Below, in pieces: positions 11,861 to 61,996 of a stretch of DNA of 64,000 bases. Under the pieces are notes generated by a model. The model ran no database searches and was not told where the DNA came from. It saw nothing but the letters and a program-made list of their open reading frames with translations. This DNA comes from Gammaproteobacteria bacterium (GTDB lineage Bacteria > Pseudomonadota > Gammaproteobacteria > G965277405), in the NCBI GenBank assembly GCA_965277405.1, contig OZ255726.1, positions 1,636,580 through 1,700,579 on the forward strand. The letters are read 5' to 3'. A program made the translations under genes and the position numbers. Position 1 is the first letter of the stretch; each line of letters opens with the position of its first letter.

Positions 11861-11928
11861 CTTTTTATGCATCTACAACAAAACATGATTGACTATAAAG
11901 TTACCCCACCAGCACTGGCACAAATCGC

Positions 11929-12207
11929 ATGCATTTTATCATTATTGGACTATCAATCATCGTCCTCCTTGTTTTGGCGGTTGCTGCGTCGATTTATGCT
12001 CGTCAACGTCGCAATTATTGGCGAGTAGCTGCAACACTGATTATTCTTGGAGTTGCCGCGTTTATTGGCAGTAGTTTTACCACAAGCGAAATATTACCAA
12101 ACGGCATCCTCTACGCAGCGTATTTCTTGTTAACCCCGATCGGCTACCTCAGCGTGCTACTCGGAACCATCTGCGCAATAACCCTATATGTTATTCGTAA
12201 TAAGTAA
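11929..12207 (+). CDS. hypothetical small membrane protein (about 3 TM segments)
   Basis: 92-aa ORF with three hydrophobic stretches. No recognisable family. Confidence 0.4.
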   Translation: MHFIIIGLSIIVLLVLAVAASIYARQRRNYWRVAATLIILGVAAFIGSSFTTSEILPNGILYAAYFLLTPIGYLSVLLGTICAITLYVIRNK

Positions 12208-13950: not shown

Positions 13951-14254
13951 CTAAGGAAGTTCTGATGAAGTCGCTGATGGAGCGAGTTTGCCTGCAATTG
14001 CAGATGATTGCAAGGCGCATACCGCAGGCGCATGTCGTAGCAAATACGCCAAGGGATGCAACACAGCAAACTTAAGCAATTGCCGCAAACCATAATATAT
14101 TCAACACAACGACGGGTAAATACGCTGCGATCGGTCGTTGCAGTACTTGATAATACCCACAAGTCACCACCAGTGTTTTCTGTGCATTGCGTATAGTTAT
14201 CATCAGCGTTTTTGCTCCGTCTCGCCAGTCATGGACTTAATCAGAACTTCTTAA
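13951..14254 (-). mobile_element. RE295 element, near-full but degenerate copy 3
   Basis: CTAAGGAAGTTCTGATGAAGTCGCTGATGGAGCGAGTTTGCC ... CGCCAGTCATGGACTTAATCAGAACTTCTTAA. Confidence 0.85.
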
Positions 14255-16901: not shown

Positions 16902-17193
16902 TAGGGAACCTCTGATTAAGTCCATGATGGGCGAGACGGAGAAAAAACGCTGATGATAACTAGACGCAGTGCGCAGATAATACTGGTGGTATTATCAAGT
17001 GCTGCAACGACGTTAGCGCAGCGTTTTTTCCCGTCCTTCTGTTGAATATACTTTGGGTTTGATGGTAGCGGTACTTGCTGTGTTGCATCCCTTGGCGTAT
17101 ATGCTACGGCATGCGCCTGCGGAATGCGCCTTGCAATCATCAGCAATTGCCATCAAACTCGCTCCATCAGCGACTTAATCATAGCTTCCTTAG
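16902..17193 (+). mobile_element. RE295 element, near-full copy 4
   Basis: TAGGGAACCTCTGATTAAGTCCATGATGGGCGAGACGGAG ... CATCAGCGACTTAATCATAGCTTCCTTAG. Confidence 0.9.
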
Positions 17194-18377: not shown

Positions 18378-18677
18378 TAGGGAAGCTCTGAGTAATTCCA
18401 TGATGGGCGAGACGGAGCAAAAACGCTGATGATACTTAAGCGCAGTGCGCATTAATACTGGCGGGTCTTGTGGGTATTGCCAAGTGCTGCAACGACGTTT
18501 GCGCAGCGTTTTTTCCCGTCCTTCTGTTGAATATATAACGGTTTGCCTACAAGCGGTACTTGCTGTGTTGCATCCCTTGGCGGATAGCTAGGTCATGCGT
18601 CTGCGGTTTGCGCCTTGCAATCATCAGCAATTGCAGGCAAACTCGCCCCATCAGCGACTTAATCAGAGCTTCCTTTG
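18378..18677 (+). mobile_element. RE295 element, near-full copy 5
   Basis: TAGGGAAGCTCTGAGTAATTCCATGATGGGCGAGACGGAG ... CATCAGCGACTTAATCAGAGCTTCCTTTG. Lies upstream of rho. Confidence 0.9.
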
Positions 18678-21792: not shown

Positions 21793-21970
21793 GGAACCTC
21801 TGATTAAGTCCATGATGGGCGAGACGGAGAGAAAACGCTGATGATAACTAGACGCAGCACTTGATAATACTGGTGGTCTTGTGGGTGTTGCCAAGTGCTG
21901 CAACGACGTTAGCGCCGCTTTTTTCCCGTCGTTGTGTTGAATATACTTTGGGTTTGCGGCAATTGCAGGT
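21789..21970 (+). mobile_element. RE295 element, left half only (copy 6)
   Basis: CTAAGGAACCTCTGATTAAGTCCATGATGGGCGAGACGGAG ... TTTGGGTTTGCGGCAATTGCAGG, after which similarity is lost. Confidence 0.85.
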
Positions 21971-23060: not shown

Positions 23061-23369
23061 CTTTGGAAGCTCTGATTAAGTCGCTGATGGAGCGAGTTTG
23101 ATGGCAATTGCTGATGATTGCAAGGCGCAAACCGCTAAGCGCATGACCTAGCTGCCAAGGGATGTAACACAGCAAGTACCGCTGCAGCAAACTGCTGTAT
23201 GTTGAACAGTATATTCAACAGAAGGACGGGAAAAAAGCGGTACTAACGTCGTTGCAGCACTTGGCAAAACACCCACAAGACCACCAGTATTATCTGCGCA
23301 CTGCGCTTAAGTTTCAGCAGCGTTTTTTATCCGTCGCGCCCATCATGGAATTAATCAGCGCTTCCTTGA
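23061..23369 (-). mobile_element. RE295 element, near-full copy 7
   Basis: GGAAGCTCTGATTAAGTCGCTGATGGAGCGAGTTTG ... CCCATCATGGAATTAATCAGCGCTTCC. Confidence 0.9.
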
Positions 23370-29082: not shown

Positions 29083-29124
29083 GACGGAGTAAATCAGCAG
29101 CGAGTTAACCAGAGGTTCCCTTAA
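29053..29124 (+). mobile_element. 72-bp internally deleted RE295 derivative (left arm fused to right arm)
   Basis: TTTCTCTGATGATGTCCATGATGGTTGAGACGGAG joined directly to TAAATCAGCAGCGAGTTAACCAGAGGTTCCCTTAA. Confidence 0.7.
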
Positions 29125-29383
29125 GGAACCTCTGGTTAACTCCATGATGGGCGAGACGGAGAAAAAACGCTGATGATAACTAGACGCAGTGCGCAGATAA
29201 CACTGGTGGTCTTGTGGGTGTTGCCAAGTGCTGCAACGACGTTAGCGCAGCGTTTTTCCCCGGCCTTCTATTGAATATATGATGGTTTGCCTACAATTGT
29301 TGCGCCTGCGGAATGCGCCTTGCAATCATCAGCAATTGCAGGCAAACTCGCTCCATCAGCGTCTTAATCAGAGCTTCCCTAAG
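29121..29383 (+). mobile_element. RE295 element copy 8 (both ends present, ~30-bp internal deletion)
   Basis: TTAAGGAACCTCTGGTTAACTCCATGATGGGCGAGACGGAG ... CATCAGCGTCTTAATCAGAGCTTCCCTAAG. It abuts the mini-element at a shared TTAA. Confidence 0.9.
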
Positions 29384-29399
29384 CACGGCGGCCGATAAC

Positions 29400-30032
29400 A
29401 TGGATACAATGAATACATCACACAACGATATAATAGCTCAACTTGTCCCAATGGTAGTAGAACAAACCAACCGCGGCGAGCGTGCCTACGACATATATTC
29501 GCGCTTGCTGAAAGAGCGTGTTATTTTTCTTGTTGGCGGCGTTGAAGAGCATATGGCAAACTTAATTGTTGCCCAATTGCTTTTTCTTGAGTCGGAAAAT
29601 CCAGATAAAGCAATTTCACTGTATATCAACTCTCCTGGTGGCGTTGTGACTGCGGGAATGGCAATATATGACACAATGCAATATATAAAATCTGAGGTTG
29701 CTACAGTATGTATTGGTCAAGCAGCAAGCATGGGTGCTGTGCTGTTAGCAGCGGGTGCAGCTGGTAAGCGGTATTGCTTACCGCATAGTCGAGTAATGAT
29801 TCATCAACCATTGGGCGGTTTCCAAGGTCAGGCAACAGATGTAGAAATTCATGCCCGCGAAATTCTCAAAGTCAAAGCAATGATCAATCAACTGCTTGCC
29901 AAGCATTGTAATAAAAAACCTAGCCAACTGGCTAAAGATACTGAGCGCGATAATTTTTTGAGTGCAGCAGAAGCGCAGCAGTATGGTTTGATCGACGAAG
30001 TACTATCGCAACGACCCTTAGGGAAGCTCTGA
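29400..30032 (+). CDS. clpP: ATP-dependent Clp protease proteolytic subunit
   Basis: Start MDTMNTSH.. Catalytic contexts [11 protein letters not shown] and MIHQPLGG. The last 4 codons (LGKL) and the TGA stop lie in RE295 copy 9. Confidence 0.93.
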
Positions 30033-30323
30033 TTAACTCCATGATGGGCGAGACGGAGAAAAAACGCTGATGAAACTTAAACGCAGTGCGCAGCTAATAC
30101 TGGTGGTATTATCAAGTGCTGCAACGCCGTTAGCGCAGCGTTTTTTCCCGGCCTTCTATTGAATATATGATGGTTTGCCTACAATTGCCTACAATTGCTT
30201 ACGCTTGCTGTGTTGCATCCCTTGGCGTATATGCTACGGCATGCGCCTGCGGAATGCGCCTTGCAATCATCAGCAATTGCAGGCAAACTCGCTCCATCAG
30301 CGACTTAATCAGAGGTTCCTTAG
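30018..30323 (+). mobile_element. RE295 element, near-full copy 9
   Basis: TTAGGGAAGCTCTGATTAACTCCATGATGGGCGAGACGGAG ... CATCAGCGACTTAATCAGAGGTTCCTTAG. It contains a small internal duplication, TGCCTACAATTGCCTACAATTGC. Confidence 0.9.
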
Positions 30324-42919: not shown

Positions 42920-44018
42920 ATGGAAATGGAACGCAATCAAATCAACAATGAAATAAAAAATCGTTTGGCGCAAGTACACGCGCTGCGGAGGTATCTTTGA
43001 CTACGATGCCAAACTGCAACGCTTGACGGAACTCAAAGATTTATTGAGCAATCAATCCTTGTGGCAGGACCGACAACGCGCACAACAACTCAGCAAAGAG
43101 GAAGCACACATTGATCGAGTCATTACCCCGATCAATCAAGCCTTGCAACAGCTCGACGCGCTCGACGAGTTGTTGGAAATGGCGTGCATGGAAAATGACG
43201 ATGCAGTTATTGCAGATGTTGTTGCGGATTTGCAAGGCGTGGGCAAAACTATTGATGATTTAGAGTTTCAGCGGATGTTCAATAATCCACATGACCCAGC
43301 CAATGCGTATATCGACATCCAAGCAGGATCTGGGGGCACCGAAGCGCAGGATTGGGCAAATATGTTGTTGCGGATGTATTTGCGCTGGGCGGAGTCGCAT
43401 CAGTTTAAAACAGAAATGCTCGATTATTCACACGGCGATGTAGCTGGCATTAAAAACGCAACAATTTTGGTGAGCGGGTCGTACGCGTTTGGTTGGGCAC
43501 GCACAGAAACAGGGGTCCATCGCTTGGTGCGCAAATCACCATTTGATTCAAACAGCAAACGCCATACTTCATTTGCCTCGGTATTTGTCTCACCAGAAAT
43601 TAACGATGATATTGAAATCGATGTCAACCCAGCAGATTTGCGGGTCGATACTTATCGCTCCAGCGGTGCAGGTGGGCAGCATGTCAACACCACAGATTCT
43701 GCGGTGCGGATTACCCATCTGCCAACGGCAACGGTTGTCCAATGCCAAAACCAGCGCTCACAGCATCAAAACCGTGATAAAGCGATGCAGCAGTTGCGCG
43801 CCAAGTTGTATGAAATTGAAATGCTAAAACAACGCGCGGAGCGCGATGAGGTAGAAGCCAATAAATCTGACATTGGTTGGGGCAGCCAAATTCGTTCATA
43901 TGTCCTTGATGATGCGCGGATTAAAGACTTGCGCACGGGGCATGAAACAGGCAATACTCAAGCGGTATTGAATGGTGATATTGACGCTTTTCTTATTGAA
44001 AGTCTGCGGACTTTATAA
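42920..44018 (+). CDS. prfB: peptide chain release factor 2, requires programmed +1 frameshift at 42998
   Basis: Frame 0 reads [26 protein letters not shown] then TGA. The +1 frame continues [13 protein letters not shown]... SPF (RKSPFDS) and GGQ (GAGGQHVN) motifs are present. Confidence 0.93.
42987..43001 (+). promoter_or_regulatory. prfB autoregulatory +1 frameshift site
   Basis: GGAGG TAT CTT TGA C: an SD-like element 3 nt upstream of the CTT-TGA-C slippery/stop context, as in E. coli prfB. Confidence 0.9.
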
Positions 44019-44665
44019 TGGCGCAGCAGCAACGTATCATCCCATCCCATGCTGGATTAGCGCTTGAACTTAGGCATGATGATTTTGGTATGCATCCACG
44101 TGCCATGGTTGTTTGTCATCCGCTGCCTACTGCAGGCGGTTCCATGGATAATAAAGTTGTCACGACAGTCCAGCGAGCCGCCCAATTGTGTGACATGCCG
44201 TGTGTGCGCTTTAATTTTCGAGGTGTTGGCAACAGTACCGGCACCTTTGATAATGGCGTTGGAGAAACCACAGATTTGCAGTCAACTGTAGCTTGGCTTG
44301 CCAACAACAGCAGCGTTGCATCAATCCTGCTGGCGGGATTCTCGTTTGGAGCTGCAGTAGCGCTGCGCGGTGTTGAGATGCTGGCGCTACCTGTCTGGCA
44401 CTTGTTGCTAGTCGCTCCGCCAATAGGAGTCAAAGAATATGTGTTTACTGAGCAATTGACTGTTCCAGCAACAATTATTCAAGGTGATGCTGATGAAATT
44501 GTTGATGCGAATAATGTGTTTAAATGGTCGCAACGTTGCGTGCCAGCGCCACAGGTTGTGCGGATGGTTGGTGCGAGTCATTTTTTTCATAGACGCTTGG
44601 TTGAGTTGCGCCAGCATGTGATAGATGAGGTGCTGCGACCTGCTCAGAAAACTCTGACTAAGTAG
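44018..44665 (+). CDS. alpha/beta-fold hydrolase
   Basis: 215 aa with nucleophile elbow GFSFGA. The ATG overlaps the prfB stop. The last ~7 codons (QKTLTK*) lie in a degenerate RE295 end. Confidence 0.65.
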   Translation: MAQQQRIIPSHAGLALELRHDDFGMHPRAMVVCHPLPTAGGSMDNKVVTTVQRAAQLCDMPCVRFNFRGVGNSTGTFDNGVGETTDLQSTVAWLANNSSVASILLAGFSFGAAVALRGVEMLALPVWHLLLVAPPIGVKEYVFTEQLTVPATIIQGDADEIVDANNVFKWSQRCVPAPQVVRMVGASHFFHRRLVELRQHVIDEVLRPAQKTLTK

Positions 44666-44712
44666 CCGATGAAGTGAGTTTGTTAGCAGATGCTGTTGTT
44701 GATGCCCGCACC
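44645..44712 (-). mobile_element. degenerate RE295 right-end fragment (inverted)
   Basis: AGAAAACTCTGACTAAGTAGCCGATGAAGTGAGTTTGTTAGCAGATGCTG compared with GGAAGCTCTGATTAAGTCGCTGATGGAGCGAGTTTGCCTGCAATTGCTG. Confidence 0.55.
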
Positions 44713-44867
44713 ATCACGAACACTTCTTTATGGTAATTGTGCGCGTGGAGTTTTGCAGCGATAGCGTTTGAAATTTGCAGTATTCATCGATATAATTCCT
44801 AGCAAACAGGTGTTGTTCTTGCTGGTAACATGTATTATTCGCAATATTTTACATTTAAATTGGAGTT

Positions 44868-45458
44868 ATGGGCATTATGTATACTAATAGAATTGCTTCA
44901 CAGGTATTGATTGTCGGTAGTGTTTTGCTGGCGGGCTGTTCATCTTCCCCTACCGTTCCCACGCAGGAAAAATGCGTGTTTCCAGACGCTGCGGGTGGTG
45001 ATGCTCCACTGTGGGTGTGTCATGAGCGTCTTGATGGTGGCCCAAAATTTCAAGCAATGGGAAGTTCACGACTAGGAGGAAACCGTTCACTAGCTGAGTC
45101 AAAAGCAACGGCTGTTGCACAGGTTAAATTGGCGCGGCGGATGAACAGCTCCATAAAAAACATGCTTGAAGGCTATGCCGCTGAAGTGGTATCAACCGAT
45201 GGCGATGTTATCAACACAGATAGCTTTGAAGAAACAACTCGGATTACAGTGAAGCAAAATATTATCGGCAGCCACATTATTCGAAAAGTGGTTAGTTCTA
45301 GCGGAGACGAACTGTATGTACTGATGGTAATGAATCCTGCTGATGTTAAGGAGGTGGTAGGCGAAGTTATCGATGTACTGGAACAGGAAAATAATCTGTT
45401 AAAGGGTAAGATGAACCTAGGCAATGCAATGAAACGCCTCGATGAGAAGGTGCAATAG
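44868..45458 (+). CDS. LPP20-like lipoprotein
   Basis: Canonical lipobox LLAGC (Cys24). LPP20-like pattern ..PLWVC..AMGSS...AESKATAVAQVKLARRM..LYVLMV. Confidence 0.65.
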   Translation: MGIMYTNRIASQVLIVGSVLLAGCSSSPTVPTQEKCVFPDAAGGDAPLWVCHERLDGGPKFQAMGSSRLGGNRSLAESKATAVAQVKLARRMNSSIKNMLEGYAAEVVSTDGDVINTDSFEETTRITVKQNIIGSHIIRKVVSSSGDELYVLMVMNPADVKEVVGEVIDVLEQENNLLKGKMNLGNAMKRLDEKVQ

Positions 45459-45530
45459 GTCGTTAGTGCCTGCATAGTCGTTAGCGTCCGCATAGTTAGC
45501 GCCCACATATATTATATTAGCGTCCACATA
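45459..45530. repeat. four imperfect ~15-18-bp direct repeats GTCGTTAGCGTCCGCATA
   Basis: Units at 45459-45476, 45477-45494, 45495-45509 and 45517-45530. They fill most of the gap between two lipoprotein genes. Confidence 0.75.
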
Positions 45531-45541
45531 TAAATGCCGCC

Positions 45542-45919
45542 ATGCGCCATTGTTTGTTGTTTGCTTTGGTATTGCTTCTTCCATCTTGCACACTATTTCA
45601 ACCGCATCCTCCTGAATGGATGAACAATCCACCAGCAAACAGCGGAGTTGGCATTGCTGGACCGAACATAGGCGGCATTCCCGCACAAATCAGCTTAGCA
45701 ACCCACCGAGCCAGTATTGATTATGCAAAAAGGAAAGGGTATCTGGTTGAATCATCAACTCTGGTTCGCGCTGGTGCTGATGGGAAGATTGAATGGGAAG
45801 AGCTAGAGGAGAATAGCAACGGGACTATGGAGGCAACTAAAGTGCAGGTAGAAGTGCGAGAACGTTGGTACGATGGGCATACCAACTACTATGTTCTGGT
45901 TACGGCAGTGGATGAGTGA
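45542..45919 (+). CDS. small exported protein, probably a lipoprotein, LPP20-like
   Basis: 125 aa. Signal peptide with LLPSC (non-canonical Pro at -2). Pattern ..PEWMNNPP..GVGIAG...ATHRASIDYAKRKG..YYVLV. Confidence 0.5.
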   Translation: MRHCLLFALVLLLPSCTLFQPHPPEWMNNPPANSGVGIAGPNIGGIPAQISLATHRASIDYAKRKGYLVESSTLVRAGADGKIEWEELEENSNGTMEATKVQVEVRERWYDGHTNYYVLVTAVDE

Positions 45920-46050
45920 TGGGGTTTTAGTTGGTATTCTAACCATTCATCCAATATTGATTGTTTGTAGGTTTGATTCAGCATTCTGGCAACGTGTGTT
46001 GCAACGAAAAATGCAAGTGATGAGTGATATTCACCAGTTTAAACGCCCAG

Positions 46051-46086
46051 CTAATAAGGAATCGCTGATTAAGCAGATGATTGGCA
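46051..46086. mobile_element. degenerate RE295 end-like fragment inside the cluster
   Basis: CTAATAAGGAATCGCTGATTAAGCAGATGATTGG compared with CTAAGGAAGCTCTGATTAAGTCGCTGATGGAG. Confidence 0.4.
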
Positions 46087-46246
46087 TATGTCGTGTAAAC
46101 CACTGCCAACGTTGTCAAACTATTGAAATATACTGAATGTTTTCGTACACTTGTCTGTGATTTTTGCTGTCTTTGCTCTAGCATAGTCTCTATAGCGTAA
46201 CAATTGTGCAGATTGATCAATACAACGCCACAGGAGGGGGACGTTC

Positions 46247-49123
46247 ATGCGAAACACCACACTCAGTACAACAGTAACTAGATTTGCCGTGTTCGTCAGT
46301 TGTATCCTGTTAGCCGTAGGCTGCGCTACACAGCAGGCTACACAGCACAAGCCACAGCAGGCTAGTCAACAGCACCAGCTACAGCAGGCAAAAAAACAGC
46401 ACCAGCTACAGCAAGCTCAACAGCACCAGCCCAACGCAGAGTTGCGGAACGCCACCAGAGTGGCGTTCAAGGAGCGAATCCGTGTTATTAAGCTGTTGCG
46501 CACCATTAATGGGCATAGTAACCATGTATACTCAGTCGCCTTCAGTCCAGATGGTAAGACCCTCGCCAGCGGATCTCGCGATGGTATTCTCAAACTCTGG
46601 AATCCGCGCAGCGGTAAGTTGTTGCGCTCCATGAATGGGCATAATAGTGACATGGTAACGTCAGTCGCCTTTAGTCCAGATGGTCAGACCTTCGCCAGCG
46701 GATCTGGGGATAATACTATCAAACTCTGGAATCCGCGCAGCGGCAAGCTGTTGCGCACCATTAATGGGCATAGTGACCATGTAGACTCAGTCGCCTTCAG
46801 TCCAGATGGTAAGACCCTCGCCAGCGGATCTCGCGATGGTATTCTCAAACTCTGGAATCCGCGCAGCGGTAAGTTGTTGCGCTCCATTAATGGGCATAAT
46901 AGTTACATGGTAACGTCAGTCGCCTTTAGTCCAGATGGTAAGACCCTCGCCAGCGGATCTCGCGATGGTATTCTCAAACTCTGGAATACGCGCAGCGGCA
47001 AGTTATTGCGCACCCTGAATGGGCATAGTGACCATCTATACTCAGTCGCCTTCAGTCCAGATGGTAAGACCCTCGCCAGCGGATCTCGCGATGGTATTCT
47101 CAAACTCTGGAATCCGCGCAGCGGTAAGTTGTTGCGCACCATGAATGGGCATAATAGTCACATGGTAACGTCAATCGCCTTTAGTCCAGATGGTAAGACC
47201 CTCGCCAGCGGATCTGGGGATAATACTATCAAACTCTGGAATCCGCGCAGCGGTAAGTTGTTGGGCACCACTAAAGTGCAGAGTAACGATGTATTTTCAG
47301 TCGCCTTCAGTCCAGCTGGAACCCTCGCCAGCGGATCTACTGATAATACTATCAAACTCTGGCAATTACCACCGAGGCTAGATGCCAATGACTTGAATAA
47401 TGACTGGAATAAGTTTGTCGTCAGTTGGAATCGTGGCGACGCAGGGCTAATAGAATTGTACCAGCTACAACGCAAATACCCAGAGGATGCCGTCATAGGC
47501 GATGCATACGTCAAAGCGAGTGTCGCTAGCCCCTACGAAAGTGGCCGAGTTGCTGTTTATTTGCACCGGCGGCAGCTTGACAGCACTAGCTGGCGGACAA
47601 CTACCGCCTTTATCCAACAACTGGCTTCTGACTGGCTCAACCTTAAGGAAATAATCAAACCAGCGAAAATCATAATGCCTACGTTACCGCCAGCTGTAGA
47701 GCTGACACAGGAAAATTGGGAAGGGGATAGTGAATTCGAAACTCGAGTTGCTCAGCTGAACAAGGCGCGTCAAGCGCGGATAAACCAACTTCAAGCAGAC
47801 TACAGACACAAGGTCGAAGTGCGCAACAGCAAAGTTAGCAAGCTTGAACGCCTACAACAGCAACGCCATAATCAACTAGCAAGCTATGTACAAGGCATAC
47901 TTGATTATAGCCTTGAAACGCAGCCGCCAGCACTAGACAAAGTAATAATCAACCAACAAACACTTGATCTTTATGCTGATCTGGTGTTCAAAGGAACCCT
48001 TGTTGGTCGCTATAAACTGGCGCAGGCGCCACTGAAGCTGCGCAAACAGGCTATGACTAACAGCAAAAGTGTGAAAGTTCTACCAAATATTGAGTTAAGC
48101 GACACCAATGATTTTCGTGTAACTTCAATCACTATCTTGCATGATGATCAAAGATGGCTAGCGCAGGCAAGCGAGCAGCAGCTACAACACACGAATACCC
48201 CTTTGGTTGCTACCATCGGCAACGCCGGCGAAACGCGTGAACTGAGTAGTATCTCCCTACTGCAAAAGCAAAACCCCAACCTAGTCGATGTCAACTCAGT
48301 GGGGACGGTTCAGTACAAAGACGGCACCACAGCACTCACCCGCTATCAAGACGATCTCACTCCGCTGGTGCAACAATTAGCCCAAGCACCAATAGACCAA
48401 AGCAAATGGCTGTTCGTCATCGGTGCAGAACGCTATCAGGAGACAGATAACATCCTTTTTGCCAGAAGAAGTGCCGAGAACTTTGCCCTCGCCGCCAAAA
48501 AATCACTTGGCATCGACGCTGGTCACACCATCACCCTCTACGACGAGCAGGCAACCAGTGGACAGATCAAAACCAAGCTCAAAAAGCTGCTGCGTGATGG
48601 CATTAGTTCAGGTGACAGCATTATCATTTACTACAATGGTCACGGCTTGCCGGTCAGAGAACAGGACGATACCCCCTATATGCTGCCGACCGATATGATT
48701 CCCGACTTTGTCAGCGATGAGCCTTTTTTTAAACTTGAAAATATGTATGCTTTACTCGCTAAATCGAAAGCAGGCAACGCAATAGTGATAATGGACAGTT
48801 GCTTTACTGGCGGCGCGGACGGCAGGTCAGTCATCAAAGGTGTGGCAGCAGCGAGGCTATCACCAAAAAAACTTTTGATAGACAAGAGCAAACTCATCGT
48901 TATGACAGCAGGGACAGACAAGCAATACTCCACCGCCTTCAAAGACAAAGGCTACCGACTTTTTAGCTACTACCTGATTAAAAGGCTGGTAGCAAACAAA
49001 CCGCAAACGGTTGAAGATTGGTTTGAATCGGTACAAAGTCAGGTCAAAACAACTTCGCGCCAAATAGGAGGCTCGCTCAGCTATCAGGATCCGCAGTTGC
49101 TGGGGAGCAATCAGCAGCTATAG
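46247..49123 (+). CDS. lipoprotein with Q-rich tether, seven WD40 repeats, long linker and C-terminal caspase-like (peptidase C14) domain
   Basis: Strong SD (GGAGGGGG). Lipobox LLAVGC (Cys26). Seven units of NGH..SVAFSPDGKTLASGS.D..IKLWN. The C14 pattern is WLFVIGAERY...IIIYYNGHG...AIVIMDSCFTGG, with the catalytic His and Cys present. Confidence 0.85.
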   Translation: MRNTTLSTTVTRFAVFVSCILLAVGCATQQATQHKPQQASQQHQLQQAKKQHQLQQAQQHQPNAELRNATRVAFKERIRVIKLLRTINGHSNHVYSVAFSPDGKTLASGSRDGILKLWNPRSGKLLRSMNGHNSDMVTSVAFSPDGQTFASGSGDNTIKLWNPRSGKLLRTINGHSDHVDSVAFSPDGKTLASGSRDGILKLWNPRSGKLLRSINGHNSYMVTSVAFSPDGKTLASGSRDGILKLWNTRSGKLLRTLNGHSDHLYSVAFSPDGKTLASGSRDGILKLWNPRSGKLLRTMNGHNSHMVTSIAFSPDGKTLASGSGDNTIKLWNPRSGKLLGTTKVQSNDVFSVAFSPAGTLASGSTDNTIKLWQLPPRLDANDLNNDWNKFVVSWNRGDAGLIELYQLQRKYPEDAVIGDAYVKASVASPYESGRVAVYLHRRQLDSTSWRTTTAFIQQLASDWLNLKEIIKPAKIIMPTLPPAVELTQENWEGDSEFETRVAQLNKARQARINQLQADYRHKVEVRNSKVSKLERLQQQRHNQLASYVQGILDYSLETQPPALDKVIINQQTLDLYADLVFKGTLVGRYKLAQAPLKLRKQAMTNSKSVKVLPNIELSDTNDFRVTSITILHDDQRWLAQASEQQLQHTNTPLVATIGNAGETRELSSISLLQKQNPNLVDVNSVGTVQYKDGTTALTRYQDDLTPLVQQLAQAPIDQSKWLFVIGAERYQETDNILFARRSAENFALAAKKSLGIDAGHTITLYDEQATSGQIKTKLKKLLRDGISSGDSIIIYYNGHGLPVREQDDTPYMLPTDMIPDFVSDEPFFKLENMYALLAKSKAGNAIVIMDSCFTGGADGRSVIKGVAAARLSPKKLLIDKSKLIVMTAGTDKQYSTAFKDKGYRLFSYYLIKRLVANKPQTVEDWFESVQSQVKTTSRQIGGSLSYQDPQLLGSNQQL
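46508..47375 (+). repeat. tandem 126/129-bp coding repeats (7 WD40 blades), near-identical at the DNA level
   Basis: Units start at 46508, 46634, 46763, 46889, 47018, 47144 and 47273. Alternating 126- and 129-bp units give a super-repeat of about 255 bp. Confidence 0.9.
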
Positions 49124-49140
49124 CACAAGCCAGACAAAGC

Positions 49141-50193
49141 ATGCAATCTCCTTGGCAGTTTGTCTGTATGGCAATACTCCTAAGTTGTTGCGCCACAAAC
49201 ACACCAACCCTAGAATATCCGCAGTGGTACAAAAGATTACCGCAGCAGCAAGGGATAGTGATTGGCTATGGCTATGGTTTGACAAAACAAGAAGCTCGGT
49301 ACAAGTCTTTTGATCATCTTCGTAACCAGCTGGGCGTCAGCGTACATTCCACTCAGGTTTTTTCTGAGTTTGAACGAATTACTAACATTGGCATTGATGA
49401 GTTCAGCGATACAAGGGCAGCAGAAGTAATTATTAATGCGGATATACACGGAGCCGTCCTGCGTAAGGCTGAGCAACGAGGCAGTTATTATTTCATCGCT
49501 TACAGCACTGATATCAGGTCGGTTCGGTCGCGTATTCTCGAAACCCCCAGTCTTTGTCAAGGAGCAAAGGCTGTCGGAATACACAGGCAGCAAAGCCTAA
49601 CAGGTTTCAAGCCATTCGCACCAATCACCCGAGATTTACAAGCAGATGGTTGCCCAGACAACTGGACTCTACAACGGCTGAATAATTCATGGTCTATTGA
49701 ATTGGCGGGACACAGTTTCCAGCTACCGAATGAGCAACTATGGCGTCTTACCCTTGCTATAGACAAGACAGATGAACTTACACTGCTTGACGATAAACAT
49801 CATGAACAGGAGAGTTTTCGTGCTGGTGAGCGTTATTTCGTTTCCTATAACAAACCAGTTAATAGCAACATGTACCTTTTTCTCGTTAACGAACTTGGTC
49901 AGGTTAATCTACTTGATCAATCCGAGGCCAAACAGCTACGCCGTGAGCGCTGGTTGTACCCCAATCCCGATAAATACGCTGGTGGTTTGATCGCAGCACC
50001 GAACTCAAGTGGATCAATACATAATGACTTAATAGTGGCAGCCGCTTGTCCTGAGACTATCCACTATCATTTTTCCTCCCTGACAAGTGCAAAACCTGAC
50101 CTTGCCGATGAAAGACTGTATGTTCTGGACCGATTGATCAAGGAAGTTGAGCATTGTTTGGTACATATGAGAAGCCTCAGGATAGTATTATAA
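49141..50193 (+). CDS. lipoprotein with LPP20-like N-terminal part and DUF4384-like C-terminal part
   Basis: Lipobox LLSCC. YGYGLTKQEARYKSFDHLRNQLGV is LPP20-like. FRAGERYFVSYNKPVNSNMYLFLVNELGQVNLL...IVAAAC fits the recalled DUF4384 pattern. Confidence 0.55.
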   Translation: MQSPWQFVCMAILLSCCATNTPTLEYPQWYKRLPQQQGIVIGYGYGLTKQEARYKSFDHLRNQLGVSVHSTQVFSEFERITNIGIDEFSDTRAAEVIINADIHGAVLRKAEQRGSYYFIAYSTDIRSVRSRILETPSLCQGAKAVGIHRQQSLTGFKPFAPITRDLQADGCPDNWTLQRLNNSWSIELAGHSFQLPNEQLWRLTLAIDKTDELTLLDDKHHEQESFRAGERYFVSYNKPVNSNMYLFLVNELGQVNLLDQSEAKQLRRERWLYPNPDKYAGGLIAAPNSSGSIHNDLIVAAACPETIHYHFSSLTSAKPDLADERLYVLDRLIKEVEHCLVHMRSLRIVL

Positions 50194-50290
50194 TGTTCAG
50201 GTGAAGCACTGAGTGTTGCGGTCGGATGTTATATGCAGATATGCTATGCTGGTCAACCCTGACCATTAGCCACATAACCATGAGAAAAAT

Positions 50291-51754
50291 ATGCGCATTT
50301 ACCTAGCACCTGTATTTGTGACAATCCTTTGGATTACTTCTTCTTCAATAACAACAACTTACGCTGCTAGCGATATTGAGCAGCGTAAGCTGCAGATGCA
50401 GCAGAGCATAAATAAGCAAAAAAAAATCTTTGCAGCTTACAAGCGCAATAGTAAAAACGAGTTTGAAGCCTATCGTGCCCAGCAACAGGAAACTTTAAAA
50501 AAAGCAATTAAAGAAAACTGGCGCCAATTTCAAATTTACAAAGCAGACTTCAGCTTGCTTGGCAACAAGCCGCAAAACCAACCAGCCTACGGCAACCAGG
50601 TTAAACATCAACTAGCAGCCAAATCACCAAATCTCAAAACATCAATTGTAAAACCTAGGGATGGTCATCTTTCACAGCAAAAAACAGCAAACACGCAGCC
50701 ACTTAATCTGTATGGAATGACGTTATCTATGCCTGTGGTCACGCAGCCAGTCATGTCAGCAGGAGCAGACAAACAGGCAATTACTGACTATCTACAAGTA
50801 AACCCAGATTACGAAAAAAAGTTAGTTGTGTTTGCCCGTGATACTGCAGAGCGACTCCACCTTGACGATTGGGGTACATACTTGCTGATGCGTGAAATAG
50901 CACGGCAGCTCTACCCAGATAGCTGGCAAACCAGACGCCTTGCCCAATGGAAATGGATGAATCAGCTTGGCTACGATCTGCGCATAGCCGAAACAAGCAA
51001 CGAATTACGTTTACTACTACCAGTCACCCAGACAATATATGGTCACTCATACATATTTATAGAAGGCAATAAATACTATCTTGATACCCCAGCTGGTAGC
51101 GACTTGCACACCTATCCACAACAATTTGATAAACTTGCAGCCATAGAGAATATCAACCCAACACAAGTGCGGTGGTCTGATGACAAGCAGAATATTCATG
51201 TTCGCCAGCTTGATTATTCCAACGATGGCGAACACTACCAAATTACGCTTAAGTTCGATATACGTACACTGCGGATGATGCAGGATTATCCGCAAATGAT
51301 TTTTTCTCGATATTTTAAAACACCTCTTTCGCCAAAACTTGAACAATCACTCAAAGATCAGCTCATGCCTGTGCTTGCAGGCAAGAGCAAATATCAGCAG
51401 GCAAGTCTGCTGCTTAAGTTGGTACAGAAATCTCTCGCCTACCAGACTGATCAACAACAGTTTGGCAAGGAAAACTACCTATTTGCCGAAGAATCTATAG
51501 GGTTTCCATATGCCGACTGTGAAGACAGAGCTATTCTGTATGCTTGGCTGGTGCATGAGCTGCTCGACCTTCCCTATCTGGTACTGCTATACCCTAACCA
51601 CCTGACTACGGCCATAGCTCTGAACGGAACAGGTGACACAATTCATTATGGCAATACCATCTATCTGATAGCTGACCCAACATACATAGGGGCACCAATC
51701 GGTAAAGCCATGCATCCGCAGATAGAGCCAAAGATTATTTATGCTTCACAATAG
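50291..51754 (+). CDS. secreted protein with C-terminal transglutaminase-like cysteine-protease fold
   Basis: Signal peptide ..TTTYAAS. Candidate Cys/His/Asp triad in YADCEDRAILYAWLV, YPNHLTTAIAL and LIADPTY. Confidence 0.55.
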   Translation: MRIYLAPVFVTILWITSSSITTTYAASDIEQRKLQMQQSINKQKKIFAAYKRNSKNEFEAYRAQQQETLKKAIKENWRQFQIYKADFSLLGNKPQNQPAYGNQVKHQLAAKSPNLKTSIVKPRDGHLSQQKTANTQPLNLYGMTLSMPVVTQPVMSAGADKQAITDYLQVNPDYEKKLVVFARDTAERLHLDDWGTYLLMREIARQLYPDSWQTRRLAQWKWMNQLGYDLRIAETSNELRLLLPVTQTIYGHSYIFIEGNKYYLDTPAGSDLHTYPQQFDKLAAIENINPTQVRWSDDKQNIHVRQLDYSNDGEHYQITLKFDIRTLRMMQDYPQMIFSRYFKTPLSPKLEQSLKDQLMPVLAGKSKYQQASLLLKLVQKSLAYQTDQQQFGKENYLFAEESIGFPYADCEDRAILYAWLVHELLDLPYLVLLYPNHLTTAIALNGTGDTIHYGNTIYLIADPTYIGAPIGKAMHPQIEPKIIYASQ

Positions 51755-51784
51755 AGCGTTGTTTTGGTGTTATACATGCGCTGT

Positions 51785-52039
51785 TGCGGTACTTGCTGTG
51801 TTGCAACCTTTGGTGTATATGCTCCGGCATGCGCCTGCGGAATGCGCCTTGCAATCATCAGCAATTGCAGCAATTGCAGCAAACCGTTGTATATTCAACA
51901 GAATGACGGGAAAAAACGCTGCGATAACGTCGTTGCAGCACTTGATAATACCACCAGTATTATCAAGTGTTGCGCTTCAGTTATCATCAGCGTGTTTGCT
52001 TAGTCTCGCCCATTATTGAGTTAATCAGAGCTTCCTTAA
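51785..52039. mobile_element. rearranged RE295 copy 11 (right-arm interior in + orientation fused to left half in - orientation; only one terminal repeat)
   Basis: GCGGTACTTGCTGTGTTGCAACC..CCTTGCAATCATCAGCAATTGCAG, then CAATTGCAGCAAACCGTTGTATATTCAACAGAATGACGGGAAAAAACGCTGCG...CCCATTATTGAGTTAATCAGAGCTTCCTTAA. Confidence 0.8.
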
Positions 52040-52048
52040 TAAGTTATA

Positions 52049-53137
52049 ATGACCCCATCTGCTCTATACCAACAAAAAATTGACACAGGCGAAATCTGTG
52101 CGGATTGCATACAACAGCAGGCTTTGGTTGAACTTGATGGCTTGCATCTGGCGGTTATTAGCTTTTTTGAACGCAGCCGTTCATTGCTGTCGTGGAAAAA
52201 GCCCAAGCAACCGCACGGGTTATATCTGTGGGGTGAGGTTGGTCGTGGCAAAACATTTTTGCTGGATTTGCTTTACGAATCATTGCCACATTGCCGCTGT
52301 CAGCGGATTCATTTTGCCCGTTTCATGCAATGGCTACATGGGCAATTACAATTAAGAGTTGGCAGTAAAAATCCACTGCAGCGGATTGCCGCTGCATATT
52401 GCAGGCAATATGCGGTGCTGTGCTTTGATGAGCTGTACGTCAATGATATTGGTGATGCGATGTTGTTGGGTGAGTTTTTTGCGGCGATGTATCGCCACGG
52501 GATGGTGTTCATTAGCACCTCAAATAGCCACCCAGATGATTTGTATAAAGAAGGGTTACAGCGCAGTCGGTTTCTGCCTGCTATTGCCAGCATTCATCAG
52601 CACAATACCGTCTATCATTTAGGCGGGTCCCATGATTATCGATTGCGCATGCTAACAGAAAATGCTTTATTTTATATCAACAGCGATGCTGCGCAAGCAC
52701 AGCAGCATATGCGGCTGTTGTTCACCCGCTTATCTGGCAACCAACAATTATATCAAGAAGATACTGTTGAGCTCACTGCGCGTCAAGTTGCCATAGTTGT
52801 CGCGTCAGATGAGGTGTTATGGATGACGTTTGCACAAATGTGTGAAAGTGCACGGAGCAACTTTGATTATATTGAAATCTCAACAAGATTCAAAATTGTC
52901 ATGCTTAGTCATGTCCCTAAAATTACCAATGACGATGCTGCTCGGCGCTTTGTTGGCTTGATTGATGAACTGTATGCAAGCCACACGGTGTTGGTGTTGC
53001 ATAGTTATGCGCAGCTTGACCAACTGTATAATCAAAAAAAATTAGCATTTGCTTTTCAAAGAACAATCAGCAGGCTGATTGAAATGCAATCTGATGCATA
53101 CGTTGCACTGTGTGCCATCGAGGCACGGTTGCAGTAG
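52049..53137 (+). CDS. zapE: AFG1-family ATPase ZapE
   Basis: Walker A GEVGRGKTFLLD and Walker B LCFDELYV. 362 aa. Confidence 0.85.
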   Translation: MTPSALYQQKIDTGEICADCIQQQALVELDGLHLAVISFFERSRSLLSWKKPKQPHGLYLWGEVGRGKTFLLDLLYESLPHCRCQRIHFARFMQWLHGQLQLRVGSKNPLQRIAAAYCRQYAVLCFDELYVNDIGDAMLLGEFFAAMYRHGMVFISTSNSHPDDLYKEGLQRSRFLPAIASIHQHNTVYHLGGSHDYRLRMLTENALFYINSDAAQAQQHMRLLFTRLSGNQQLYQEDTVELTARQVAIVVASDEVLWMTFAQMCESARSNFDYIEISTRFKIVMLSHVPKITNDDAARRFVGLIDELYASHTVLVLHSYAQLDQLYNQKKLAFAFQRTISRLIEMQSDAYVALCAIEARLQ

Positions 53138-53912: not shown

Positions 53913-54509
53913 ATGGAAAAAATAATATATGGGCTGGTAATTACATTACTTGCTGGCTGTGGAGCATCAACGCCAACATTAGACGAAGTGCGTGCTGTAT
54001 CTGAGTGCTATTATCCAGATACTGTAGATGTTGAAGGGCCTGCTTGGGTGTGTGATGGTCCAGTTGATGGTGTTGCGCTCAAAGCAGTTGGTGTTGCTGA
54101 GCCAACGCAGGCAGGTTTTGCATTTCAACGCAGAATTGCACAAAATAATGCACAAATTGAGATAGCTGTGCGGGTTCGCAGCAGAGTGCGCGACATCATT
54201 CGGCAATATACTGAGCAAATCGGCAATGTGCCTGAAGAGCAAACGAATGCCGTGATTACAGTTACCACACAAACAATTACTGATGTGACGCTGCAGCAAG
54301 TAGAACTGTTCGCAAGTATCAAATCCCCGAATAATTATTTCTATGTGTTGATGGGGATTACCGATGATAATTTTAATGCGTTTTTAGATACCGCATTACG
54401 CTCTAGCATACAACAGAATGCTGATGACTGGGGAGCATTTCTAGATTTACACAATCAAGATCAGGAGTTACTTGCAAAAGAACTTATTACAAAAGGAATA
54501 GGTTCATAA
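53913..54509 (+). CDS. LPP20-like lipoprotein, paralog of 44868..45458
   Basis: Lipobox LLAGC. CYYPDTVDVEGPAWVCDGPVDG parallels CVFPDAAGGDAPLWVCHERLDG. ..FYVLMGI. The track ORF from 53682 is a spurious extension antisense to ung. Confidence 0.6.
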   Translation: MEKIIYGLVITLLAGCGASTPTLDEVRAVSECYYPDTVDVEGPAWVCDGPVDGVALKAVGVAEPTQAGFAFQRRIAQNNAQIEIAVRVRSRVRDIIRQYTEQIGNVPEEQTNAVITVTTQTITDVTLQQVELFASIKSPNNYFYVLMGITDDNFNAFLDTALRSSIQQNADDWGAFLDLHNQDQELLAKELITKGIGS

Positions 54510-56628: not shown

Positions 56629-56938
56629 GTTGATCAAACGGTTATGCTATGTTGCTATAATTGTATTACTGTTTTTTTTGGCGATGTTATTTACTCGCAA
56701 CAATGCAACAGAGCTTGTCATAGATTTTTGGGTGTGGCAAACTCCGCCTGTCTACGCTGGGGTGTGGTTCATCATTATTTTTGTTGCAGGCATGACCCTG
56801 ACGGCTATTCCTTGGGCTATCCAGCGCAGTTTTTATCGTCACAGCGTTACCAGCCTCAAACGCAAGCTGGCAGCAGCAAACACGCTTAAGGAACCTCTGA
56901 TTAATTCCATGATGGGCGAGACGGAGAAAAAACGCTGA
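56621..56938 (+). CDS. lapA: LapA-like (YciS/DUF1049) inner-membrane protein with RE295-derived C-terminal tail
   Basis: Two TM segments and synteny after ihfB. The last 17 codons plus stop ([17 protein letters not shown]) are read from the RE295 left arm. Confidence 0.65.
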   Translation: MIRLIKRLCYVAIIVLLFFLAMLFTRNNATELVIDFWVWQTPPVYAGVWFIIIFVAGMTLTAIPWAIQRSFYRHSVTSLKRKLAAANTLKEPLINSMMGETEKKR

Positions 56939-57174
56939 TGATAACTAGACGCAGTACGCAGATAATACTGGTGGTCTTGTGGGTATTGCCAAGTGCTGCA
57001 ACGACGTTATCGCAGCGTTTTTTCCCGTCCTTCTGTTGAATATACTTTGGGTTTGCTGCAGCGGTACTTGCTGTGTTGCATCCCTTGGCGTATATGCTAC
57101 GGCATGCGCCTTGCAATCATCAGCAATTGCAGGCAAACTCGCTCCATCAGCGAGTTAATCAGAGCTTTCCTAAG
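56886..57174 (+). mobile_element. RE295 element, near-full copy 12
   Basis: TTAAGGAACCTCTGATTAATTCCATGATGGGCGAGACGGAG ... CATCAGCGAGTTAATCAGAGCTTTCCTAAG. Confidence 0.9.
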
Positions 57175-58060: not shown

Positions 58061-58480
58061 CTACAACGAAGATTTACTCTTTGCTGATTTAGAGCAATTT
58101 AAGCAAAAACTGGCTAACTGGTTAGGGAAACTCTGATTAAGTCCATGATGGGCGAGACGGAGAAAAAACGCTGATGATAACTTAAGCGCAGTGCGCAGAT
58201 AATACTGGTGGTATTATCAAGTGCTGCAACGACGTTAGCGCAGCGTTTTTTTCCGTCCTTCTGTTGAATATATGATGGTTTGCTGCAATTGCTGCGCTTG
58301 CTGTGTTGCATCCCTTGGCGTATATGCTACGGCATGCGCTTAGCGGTTTGCGCCTTGCAATCATCAGCAATTGCAGGCAAACTCGCTCCATCAGCGACTT
58401 AATCAGAGCTTCCTTAGTGTGGTACAACTATGAGCGACCTCATCATTCACATAACAAAAACCACCTATTCAAGCTATGCT
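58061..58480 (+). pseudogene. rve-type (IS3/IS481-like) transposase C-terminal remnant, split by RE295 copy 14
   Basis: The left piece is ..YNEDLLFADLEQFKQKLANW (58061-58121) and the right piece is VWYNYERPHHS.. (58418-). Removing the element restores ANWLVWYNYERPH in frame. Confidence 0.55.
58122..58417 (+). mobile_element. RE295 element, near-full copy 14
   Basis: TTAGGGAAACTCTGATTAAGTCCATGATGGGCGAGACGGAG ... CATCAGCGACTTAATCAGAGCTTCCTTAG, with TTAG on both flanks. Confidence 0.9.
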
Positions 58481-61657: not shown

Positions 61658-61958
61658 CTAAGGAAGCTCTGATTAACTCGCTGATGGAGCGAGTTTGCCT
61701 GCAATTGTTGATGATTGCAAGGCGCAAACCTCTAAGCGCATGCCGTAGCATATACGCCAAAGGATGCAACACAGCAAGTACTGCTGCAGCAAACCCAAAG
61801 TATATTCAGCACAACGACTGGAAAAAAGCGGTACTAACGTCGTTGCAGCACTTGGCAGCACCCACAAGACCACCAATATTATCTGCGCACTGCGTCTAGT
61901 TATCATCAGCGTTTTTTCTCCGTCTCGCCCGTCATGGACTTAATCAGAGATTCCCTAA
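61658..61958 (-). mobile_element. RE295 element, near-full copy 15
   Basis: CTAAGGAAGCTCTGATTAACTCGCTGATGGAGCGAGTTTGCC ... CGCCCGTCATGGACTTAATCAGAGATTCCCTAA, with CTAA on both flanks. Confidence 0.9.
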
Positions 61959-61996
61959 CGCTAGCACGTGTTGCTATTGCGCGTATTACTATCTGG

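Follow-up and report, generated by a model that had tools for sequence, protein, structure and literature searches.

We analysed a window of 64,000 nucleotides from a gammaproteobacterial contig and found in it five adjacent genes, called g1 to g5 here in 5′-to-3′ order, that are inherited together as one mobile block, the cassette. The five genes may form one exported, mobile functional unit, in which a scaffold of Lpp20-type lipoproteins would hold a WD40-targeted orthocaspase and a further thiol enzyme; we favor this reading tentatively and rate it as slightly less than probable. The observations on which we build are the folds and catalytic residues of the products, their export signals, the inheritance of the block, the linkage of its parts across phyla, and the hypervariability of the propeller. 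The strand (+), the coordinates and the gaps (83, 327, 17, and 97 bp) that an earlier note on this DNA had given for the five open reading frames (ORFs) were all recovered. So was its statement that every product has an export signal: read from the translations, g1 to g4 have a lipobox, and the signal of g5 is of the signal-peptidase-I type. Within the respective families, the lipobox Cys is invariant for g1, at least 90% conserved for g2, and the majority residue for g3 and g4. All five products look exported, and g1 to g4 are predicted lipoproteins, with lipidation read from the lipoboxes. The features of the cassette are as follows.

44686..51808, + strand: whole cassette, the block common to two related metagenome contigs with different flanks
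44768..44796, + strand: promoter-like candidate, TTGAAA-17-TATAAT, 11/12 matches, 5′ of g1
44868..45458, + strand: g1, Lpp20-family lipoprotein, 196 amino acids (aa), LLAG|C
45542..45919, + strand: g2, small Lpp20-like (SHS2-type) lipoprotein, 125 aa, LLPS|C, with a PxW..NP motif
46247..49123, + strand: g3, 958-aa lipoprotein, LAVG|C, with WD40 propeller, conserved middle module, and caspase-like domain
46325..46480, + strand: g3 Gln-rich low-complexity tether, residues 27-78, partly encoded by a 27-nt tandem repeat
46481..47371, + strand: g3 seven-blade WD40 propeller, near-identical 126/129-nt repeats, the hypervariable part of the cassette
47678..48181, + strand: g3 conserved middle module, residues ~478-645, a helical hairpin and then a six-strand beta domain, with near-invariant alignment columns
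48392..49120, + strand: g3 caspase/metacaspase-like (C14, clan CD) domain, His799 at 48641-48643 and Cys852 at 48800-48802
49141..50193, + strand: g4, 350-aa lipoprotein, LLS|C, with an N-terminal Lpp20-like and a C-terminal DUF4384-like domain
50291..51754, + strand: g5, 487-aa secreted protein, TTYA|AS, beginning with a long helix that is followed by a middle domain and a C-terminal transglutaminase/LapG-like domain

Inheritance of the five genes as a block

The same five genes are present on L087 and L169, two contigs of a single metagenome. By blastn, window positions 44686-51808 are 95.3% identical to L169 and positions 44798-51875 are 92.7-92.9% identical to L087. The homology with L169 starts 21 bp past the stop codon of the upstream hydrolase gene and ends 54 bp past that of g5; outside it, nothing matches between the window and either contig except copies of a dispersed repeat. 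The flanks are different in each case. In the window they are an alpha/beta hydrolase gene and zapE; L087 has IS1595 and DDE transposases and Cas9; and in L169 the block lies between pyrF and a Mu-like prophage. The five genes have thus been inherited as one mobile block. Because the exact block recurs in unrelated contexts, and because its parts pair across phyla (see below), we concluded that the linkage is not due to chance.

Mobility is better shown by these three insertion contexts than by GC content. The earlier note had thought the WD40 region GC-richer than its surroundings, which holds (0.508 against a window mean of 0.452 with a standard deviation [SD] of 0.032, i.e., 1.75 SD above). 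The horizontal origin that it drew from this did not hold up to the same degree. GC content at third codon positions is raised across the whole of g3, and GC content is at most a weak hint of a foreign origin of the gene.

The dispersed repeat resembles a miniature inverted-repeat transposable element (MITE). It is 296 bp long with terminal inverted repeats of ~35 bp and has ~14 copies in the 64 kb; copies are also found beside the cassette in L087 and L169, and in L169 two of them bracket it in opposite orientation. An ORF of 92 aa (51741-52019, +) is almost wholly covered by the repeat that adjoins the cassette on the right and is very probably no gene. The repeats are as follows.

51784..52042, no strand assigned: MITE-like repeat fragments at the right end of the cassette, from blastn with the copy at 58121-58416
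44646-44698: weak 53-nt repeat fragment at the left end of the cassette
58121-58416: MITE-like copy used as reference
~1104-1393, 2456-2749, 13952-14245, 16902-17192, 18378-18675, 21790-21966: MITE-like copies
~23065-23365, 29121-29381, 30018-30322, 51784-52039, 56886-57167, 61659-61959: further MITE-like copies

Domains and catalytic residues of the products

The seven-blade WD40 propeller that the earlier note had read from g3 is clear-cut: seven PF00400 repeats match at residues ~79-375 (E = 1.3e-93), and whole-propeller models also match g3 above their cutoffs. The blades (46490-47299) are encoded by 126- and 129-nt units in alternation, which make up three higher-order repeats of 255 nt with 92-94% identity, a likeness that indicates probable recent homogenization by amplification or gene conversion. 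In the tether, Tandem Repeats Finder detected four copies of a 27-nt unit at 46330-46430. Amino acid identity of the propeller is only 56-64% to L087 and 60-74% to L169, in cassettes that are otherwise 95-100% identical. Residues 701-958 of g3 (the caspase part) are 94-100% identical; compared with the proteins of L087, g4 and g5 of the window are 100%, g1 is 98.5%, and g2 is 95% identical. The ratio of nonsynonymous to synonymous substitution rates (dN/dS) is 0.48-0.77 in the propeller versus 0.07-0.09 in the caspase domain. Over the 28 repeats of four alleles, sequence entropy peaked in the segments GHSxxVx, SGSxDxT, and WNxxSG, at both positions that follow GHS, at the one that precedes SVAFSP, at the neighbors of the Asp in SGSxDxT, and at the position after LWN. 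In WD40 structures the top face is formed by the D-A and B-C loops, to which these positions presumably belong.

The ~330 aa that follow the propeller had been described as a linker. A stretch of this length is indeed present, but it is not a plain linker: part of it is a structured, conserved module, made of a helical hairpin of ~65 residues and a beta domain, that is common to the whole g3 family. The hairpin contains the motif LPP..L.Q..FE...EFE.RV......R...I..LQ..YR..VE.RN. We built an AlphaFold2 (AF2) model of residues 381-958 from an alignment of 28 relatives; its predicted local distance difference test score (pLDDT) was 80.5 overall, mostly 84-97 in the caspase part and mostly 81-95 in the helices (114-178) and strands (182-261) of the module (fragment numbering). 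The middle module is the hallmark of the g3 caspase family. Homology of its beta part to Lpp20 or DUF4384 was considered and rejected (hhalign probability, ≤5%), as was the idea that the g3-family hairpin and the helix at the N terminus of g5 are one docking motif (hhalign probability, 0.5%).

The earlier note had also assigned to g3 a C14 caspase fold with a His (YYNGHG) and Cys (DSCFTG) dyad. Both parts of this were borne out. A Foldseek search with the AF2 model returned MALT1, metacaspases of yeast, plants, and Candida, and caspases 1, 7, and 9 (E = 1e-8 to 1e-6; probability, 1.0), and His799 and Cys852 are invariant among the 28 relatives. HYSGHG and DSCHSGG of Arabidopsis metacaspase-4 align with YYNGHG and DSCFTGG of g3. 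PF00656 matches 46 of 75 members of the g3 family (best E value, 1.6e-24), and residues 724-930 of g3 match NCBIfam NF047832 ("caspase, EACC1-associated type") at 1e-14, with 54.5 bits, below the cutoff of 140. We concluded that g3 is a C14-fold protein with the catalytic dyad and that, by curated models, it is not a clean member of the family. An Asp before Ser-Cys (DSC) is typical of Arg/Lys-specific metacaspases. The MDSC of g3 resembles the DSC of Arabidopsis metacaspase-4, and by this analogy g3 might have Arg/Lys-type specificity.

Proteins with both the middle module and the caspase domain number 176 in species-representative genomes, mainly those of Campylobacterota, Spirochaetaceae, Vibrio, Photobacterium, Shewanella, and Burkholderiaceae. 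The best match among representatives of the Genome Taxonomy Database is 44% identical. N-terminal domains vary within the family and include Lcl_C (17/75), ankyrin (8/75), and WD40 (7/75), and nine loci have two or three caspase-family ORFs within 6 kb. A plasmid search returned one plasmid each for relatives of g3 and of g5.

The other thiol enzyme would be g5. The transglutaminase-like Cys/His/Asp arrangement that had been noticed at its C terminus is conserved in a 55-sequence alignment (DCEDR...H...ADPT): Cys410 (51518) is at least 90% conserved and His437 (51599) and Asp462 (51674) are invariant, as are Asp409, Asp412, and Arg413. Judged by their conserved residues, g3 and g5 thus appear to contain two intact thiol catalytic centers. 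An AF2 model of g5 (pLDDT, 89.8) had as its best matches in the PDB LapG, a putative cysteine protease of Cytophaga (3isr), menin, VASH1, and a transglutaminase (4xz7), all of one fold class, with probabilities of up to 1.0; for LapG (4u65_E, 4fgo, and 4fgp) the probability was 0.98-1.0, with a template modeling (TM) score normalized to the target of ~0.49. The g5 family has at least 257 homologues, mostly of 450-560 aa among the matches listed, and 119 of the 120 listed have no Pfam domain. NCBIfam likewise gave nothing relevant for g5. Since curated sequence models do not match it, we regard g5, by its modeled fold, as a separate unnamed family within the transglutaminase/LapG fold class. 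A long form of g5, of 860-930 aa, is present in 23 of 80 metagenome loci (L089, L097, L121, L129, and L139, among others), often beside short or CARDB-fused C14 proteins and DUF4384 proteins of 280 or 512 aa; its C-terminal extension has no Pfam match.

Direct sequence searches of g1, g2, g4, and g5 against Pfam, NCBIfam, and the PDB gave nothing usable, and the domain calls for these proteins rest on family-level and profile-profile searches. All three proteins that the earlier note had called LPP20-like were recovered in this way. For g1 alone there is no Pfam match. A family profile of 20 sequences including g1 matches the structure of Helicobacter pylori Lpp20 (5OK8) over its full length (2.1e-13), and blastp connects g1 with a PF02169-positive lipoprotein that adjoins g5 homologues (1.7e-18). 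We concluded that g1 is, on these profile and sequence matches, a true Lpp20-family member. For g2, hhalign gave a probability of 98.15% (E = 6.5e-14) to a family of small lipoproteins of 127-155 aa found beside Lpp20 and g5. An exhaustive HMMER search with g4 found 71 relatives, 53 of them full-length and used for Pfam counts; a word-indexed homologue search with g4 returned its own cluster only. Fifty of the 53 match PF02169, and the N terminus of g4 matches Lpp20 families with hhalign probabilities of 96.9% (the small Lpp20-like family) and 92.1%. The DUF4384-like part is seen at the level of the family, with PF14326 in 22 of the 53 (best E value, 3.2e-8); g4 itself has no Pfam match.

The Lpp20 fold is SHS2-like, as in ring-forming FlgP and in FlgT (PMC12222027). 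In H. pylori, Lpp20 binds FlgP and FapH and has no assigned function, an lpp20 mutant has wild-type bacitracin resistance, and HP1457, called an LpoB homolog, is linked to peptidoglycan synthesis (PMC11756786). A profile of the FecR-domain partners that occur at related loci had no meaningful match in the PDB and gave no link to H. pylori HP1454.

A second Lpp20-family gene, g6, lies outside the mobile block, 2.1 kb 3′ of the cassette between ung and rpsA:

53913..54509, + strand: g6, Lpp20-family lipoprotein, PF02169 match at 1.7e-6

A longer g6 ORF, from 53682, is probably an overextension. The S1 protein matches the whole of the 557-aa bS1 chain in ribosome entries of the PDB, presumably those of E. 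coli, at 667 bits, which makes a gammaproteobacterial origin plausible. By blastp, g6 matches the Lpp20 protein of locus L006 at 1.9e-31 and g1 at 4e-9. The g6 protein is a closer orthologue than g1 of the Lpp20 partners of g5 homologues elsewhere, and it is a possible partner of the cassette. At L006, L007, and L008 a lipoprotein of 50-57 aa is encoded between Lpp20 and g5 (in L008, the Lpp20 gene is at 8096-8737 and the small gene at 8818-8982); it repeats the C-terminal 25 residues of the Lpp20 protein, with 72% identity in L008. This suggests that the tiny lipoprotein and the Lpp20 C terminus may have a short interaction motif in common. The cassette in the window has no counterpart of this gene.

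Gene linkage in other genomes

Two surveys were made, one anchored on the g3 family, in which 78 loci were kept, and one on g5, with 80 metagenome loci. The gene types that the earlier note had put together do co-occur elsewhere, as two pairs that recur in several phyla: caspase with g4, and g5 with Lpp20. In 52 of the 78 loci the caspase gene has a g4-family gene no more than 1.6 kb away; in 43 of these 52 it is downstream, usually immediately. Of the 26 loci with no g4 nearby, 12 are on short contigs in which one flank or both fall short of 1.5 kb. The pairs are found in Campylobacterota, Spirochaetaceae, Vibrio, Photobacterium, Shewanella, and Burkholderiaceae; the pair on a plasmid of Sulfurimonas aquatica is annotated in RefSeq as "caspase family protein" and "LPP20 family lipoprotein." The PF14326 matches in the g4 family and a published survey (PMC7475262) sustain the association of DUF4384 with C14 domains that the earlier note had suggested.

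An Lpp20-type gene lies within 3 kb of g5 in 33 of the 80 metagenome loci, and in 18 of the 35 that have at least 3 kb of sequence on both flanks. It adjoins g5 in three of the four contigs that were looked up. These loci often add the 50-57-aa lipoprotein, a small Lpp20-like protein, or a FecR-domain protein. The two pairs also meet repeatedly. The full set of five genes is found only in close relatives, with partial sets in L032 and L022. L032 (Sulfuricurvum) has an Lcl_C-caspase gene, a g4-like gene, g5, and two Lpp20 genes, with caspase, g4, and g5 in the same order as in the window; in L022, g5 is ~3 kb upstream of the caspase gene. More distant C14 proteins are encoded within 6 kb of g5 in 9 of the 80 loci. 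In L129, genes for Lpp20-like, long g5, CARDB-C14, and DUF4384 proteins stand together.

De novo clustering of the neighbors of both anchors yielded SLT lytic transglycosylases (12 loci), FecR proteins (12), CHASE2 cyclases (5), GGDEF-EAL proteins (6), and FlgH (6). Some of the SLT partners have an N-terminal helical region in common with g5. The earlier note had stated that the cassette has no NTPase, no regulator, and no cytoplasmic partner. Inside the cassette we found no NTPase or regulator, and no NTPase domain (NACHT, NB-ARC, or AAA) is present in the five proteins; an AFG1-like ATPase gene (52049-53137) lies outside the common block. Since related versions carry signaling partners (CHASE2 cyclases and FecR proteins, besides lytic transglycosylases), the lack of a regulator is a trait of this cassette and not of the system family.

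Several further observations were made at these loci. The flgH gene is directly upstream of a member of the g5 family in five loci, and a sixth has it close to a caspase gene (L108, L130, L131, L161, L022, and L020), which may be lineage-specific synteny or a functional hint. Pairs of FecR and CHASE2 adenylate/guanylate cyclase genes lie beside Lpp20/g5 or caspase/g4 modules in L033, L035, L038, L137, and L144, and a family of 172-218 aa with an APSWY-type motif (x184) also recurs. In five Campylobacterota loci (including L032, at 11448-12117, L039, L061, and L069), an MNT-HepT toxin-antitoxin pair (nucleotidyltransferase and HepT RNase) lies between or beside the caspase and g4 genes.

Within the cassette, possible expression signals are a GGAG 5′ of g1 (44868), a strong AGGAGG ribosome-binding site 5′ of g3, the promoter-like candidate at 44768..44796, and a weaker promoter-like site 5′ of g3. 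The total of promoter-like sites in the region was not above that in shuffled sequence, and we treat 44768..44796 as a candidate only; the cassette could form one or two transcription units. An alternative start of g1 is Met4 (44877), and in L169 the relative is predicted to have 193 aa. An ORF of 87 aa (45873-46136, +), which has no export signal, overlaps the end of g2 and partly fills the 327-bp gap to g3; a 103-aa gene is called at the matching spot in L087 and none in L169, and the ORF is probably spurious. Upstream of the cassette, a release-factor-2-like ORF (43023-44018, +) starts with TTG and has its usual N-terminal part missing, as would presumably fit the programmed +1 frameshift of prfB.

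Proposed mechanism, rival readings, and known systems

In the mechanism that we tentatively propose, g1, g2, and the N-terminal half of g4 would be lipid anchored, probably at the inner face of the outer membrane, and would serve as a scaffold; we suggest a scaffold because the rings of FlgP, FlgT, and the binding of Lpp20 to FlgP and FapH are precedents. The two thiol enzymes would dock on this scaffold and form a complex with it. One, g3, would be an orthocaspase-type Cys protease with a target set by the exchangeable WD40 propeller on its flexible Gln-rich tether, and its middle module, together with the adjacent Lpp20-DUF4384 protein g4, would be a dedicated partner or regulator of the protease. 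The other, g5, would cleave or, if transglutaminase-like rather than LapG-like, transamidate a substrate that is either an envelope protein or linked to peptidoglycan; we presume the chemistry to be that of a protease, not a transamidase. As a net effect, a variable protein of the periplasm or envelope would be cleaved or modified once recognized, be it one of the cell's own surface or an incoming, foreign one.

Several results weigh against this proposal. PF00656 does not match g3 itself, even at an E value of ≤10. At the same threshold g5 is not matched by PF01841 or PF06035 (BTLCP), the sole and spurious hit being Spore_GerAC (E = 2.2), and all fold matches of g5 have E values above 0.001 (3e-3 to 4e-2) and TM scores normalized to the target of ≤0.5. 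A g5 gene is present within 10 kb in only 2 of the 78 caspase loci, i.e., the full five-gene set is rare. The rate of synonymous substitution (dS) is raised in the propeller too, and the alignment of its repeats is ambiguous; positive selection may therefore not be the source of the divergence, which recombination or a shuffling of repeats could have produced instead. Sorting to the outer membrane would follow only from the E. coli +2 rule.

A housekeeping role, which we consider somewhat unlikely, would explain part of the data in another way. Lpp20 lipoproteins with g5 (or SLT) would act on peptidoglycan and the outer membrane, by remodeling or tethering them, or would lend support to a flagellar or trans-envelope structure; the caspase would be a processing or maturation protease, and WD40 one of several docking domains. 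The SLT lytic transglycosylases of 12 loci, anchored by caspase or g5 and some with the helical region of g5, fit this, and so do the five loci with flgH directly upstream of g5, the core-genome-like position of Lpp20-g5 between dnaE and metG/sulP in two beta/gammaproteobacterial contigs, and the 146 sampled genes flanking caspase loci, which are those of ordinary metabolism and transport. Contacts of H. pylori Lpp20 with flagellar motor accessory proteins and the tie of HP1457 to peptidoglycan synthesis point the same way, whereas the wild-type bacitracin resistance of the lpp20 mutant does not (PMC11756786). Nor would one expect the cassette to be mobile, with three contexts in this lineage, or the caspase family to be patchy, with N-terminal domains swapped and multiple copies per locus; and hypervariability of the propeller between near-identical cassettes is unusual for a housekeeping docking domain. 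It is this variation, confined to few repeat positions, with dN/dS of 0.48-0.77 and mosaic alleles, that speaks for surveillance or immunity, one of the uses that the earlier note had suggested (defense against phage or predators). WD40 (or ankyrin, Lcl_C, or CARDB) would recognize an invader, such as a phage ejection or tail protein, a type VI secretion system or bacteriocin toxin, or a periplasmic predator, and the caspase and g5 would destroy or cross-link it. The swapping of domains, the loci with more than one caspase copy, the mobility of the cassette, the plasmid-borne case, the MNT-HepT pairs beside or inside five loci, and a restriction-modification gene set near the L001 copy agree with such a role. 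We nevertheless consider it unlikely. To our knowledge there is no precedent for a periplasmic caspase-based defense. The defense reading was not sustained by PADLOC-DB 2.0, in which no model matches any of the five proteins at an E value of ≤1, or by the 146 flanking genes (a sample with no matched control set), which are ordinary housekeeping genes with no enrichment for defense; and the raised dS fits recombination as well as an arms race. A stronger form of the same idea, that the cassette stands for a so far unrecognized class of periplasmic, outer-membrane-tethered surveillance systems in which a hypervariable repeat sensor (WD40 here and ankyrin, Lcl_C, or CARDB in other loci) fused to a caspase, an Lpp20 scaffold, and a transglutaminase-like enzyme recognize and inactivate foreign proteins that enter the periplasm, is in our judgment equally improbable.

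Extracytoplasmic signaling, with the protease and Lpp20/FecR as a regulated-proteolysis input to CHASE2 adenylate/guanylate cyclases or cyclic di-GMP enzymes, would account for the neighborhoods with FecR (12 loci), CHASE2 cyclases (5), and GGDEF-EAL proteins (6) beside Lpp20/g5 or caspase/g4 modules. For this cassette it is highly unlikely: profiles for FecR and SLT (no CHASE2 profile was used) found no such gene in the cassette or in the 64-kb window, none of the five proteins has a cyclase domain, and in this lineage the cassette moves without such a partner. That there is no system at all, and five unrelated genes for exported proteins are adjacent by accident, we find scarcely credible. 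The confinement of the full set to close relatives, with partial sets in L032 and L022, and the 327-bp gap between g2 and g3, which permits two transcription units, would be in keeping with it; the block has been inherited whole in three contexts, however, pairwise linkage recurs across phyla, and three of the five proteins have an Lpp20-like domain.

WD40-caspases described in detail are cytoplasmic and often joined to NACHT or STAND NTPases. The statement of the earlier note that the bacterial ones are cytoplasmic is too general, since a 2012 survey noted exported or membrane-associated bacterial metacaspases (PMC3501461). Its other statement, that no function has been described for this gene set, agrees with our literature searches (on LPP20 with caspase or DUF4384, on LPP20 with transglutaminase-like or FecR, and on periplasmic WD40 caspases), which turned up no account of the set. 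Among known proteins, g3 is most like the orthocaspases and metacaspases (C14, with WD40, TPR/Sel1, or FGE-sulfatase domains or DUF4384), which have the caspase-hemoglobinase fold, the YxxGHG...DSCxxG dyad, accessory protein-binding repeats, and an association with DUF4384, including DUF4384-orthocaspase fusions (PMC7475262, PMC3501461). In contrast, g3 is a lipoprotein with no NTPase, an N-terminal propeller on a Gln-rich tether, and the family-specific hairpin and beta module, and DUF4384 is here on a separate Lpp20-fused lipoprotein rather than fused to the protease. The NTP-dependent caspase/WD40-TPR conflict systems of EACC1 type (Kaur, Burroughs, Iyer and Aravind 2020) resemble g3 in combining sensor repeats with a caspase and in the hypervariability of the repeats, and NF047832 is its best NCBIfam match, at 54.5 against a cutoff of 140. 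Because the cassette has no STAND or other NTPase and all its parts are exported, and with no EACC1 component either, it is not a STAND/EACC1 conflict system.

H. pylori Lpp20 (HP1456) and FlgP and FlgT, which are outer-membrane-associated proteins of the flagellar disk and ring, have the same domain as g1, g2, and the N terminus of g4; lipoproteins, with several paralogues per locus, are a further trait in common. In the descriptions of the H. pylori Lpp20 operon that we consulted, neither a caspase nor a transglutaminase-like protein is mentioned as a partner. A beta-hairpin insert of FlgP forms its ring (PMC12222027), and g1, g2, and g4 are likened to it by the SHS2-like domain only. LapG (the bacterial transglutaminase-like cysteine proteinase [BTLCP] of the LapD-LapG-LapA adhesin-release system), to which the C-terminal domain of g5 comes closest in structure, is likewise periplasmic with a Cys-His-Asp triad. 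However, g5 has no sequence-model match and is ~300 aa longer, with the N-terminal helix and middle domain; no LapD-like receptor or LapA-like adhesin is encoded near it, and its conserved partner is an Lpp20 lipoprotein.

As an antigen of H. pylori, Lpp20 has long been studied, yet it has no assigned function, and exported bacterial caspase homologues have been catalogued and never explained. In the cassette, lipoproteins of the Lpp20 type are genetically linked to two thiol enzymes as well as to a recognition domain whose divergence far outpaces that of the remaining parts, and its relatives are present in culturable bacteria (Vibrio chagasii, Photobacterium, Shewanella atlantica, Aliivibrio wodanis, and Sulfurimonas aquatica). 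Should the housekeeping reading be true, the cassette would be a new outer-membrane and peptidoglycan remodeling module that is widespread in Proteobacteria and Campylobacterota. If the propeller is a sensor, caspase-based recognition and proteolysis would reach into the bacterial periplasm. If the surveillance class is real, it would be an NTPase-independent, extracytoplasmic counterpart of cytoplasmic caspase/WD40 immunity and would give the Lpp20 family its first function.

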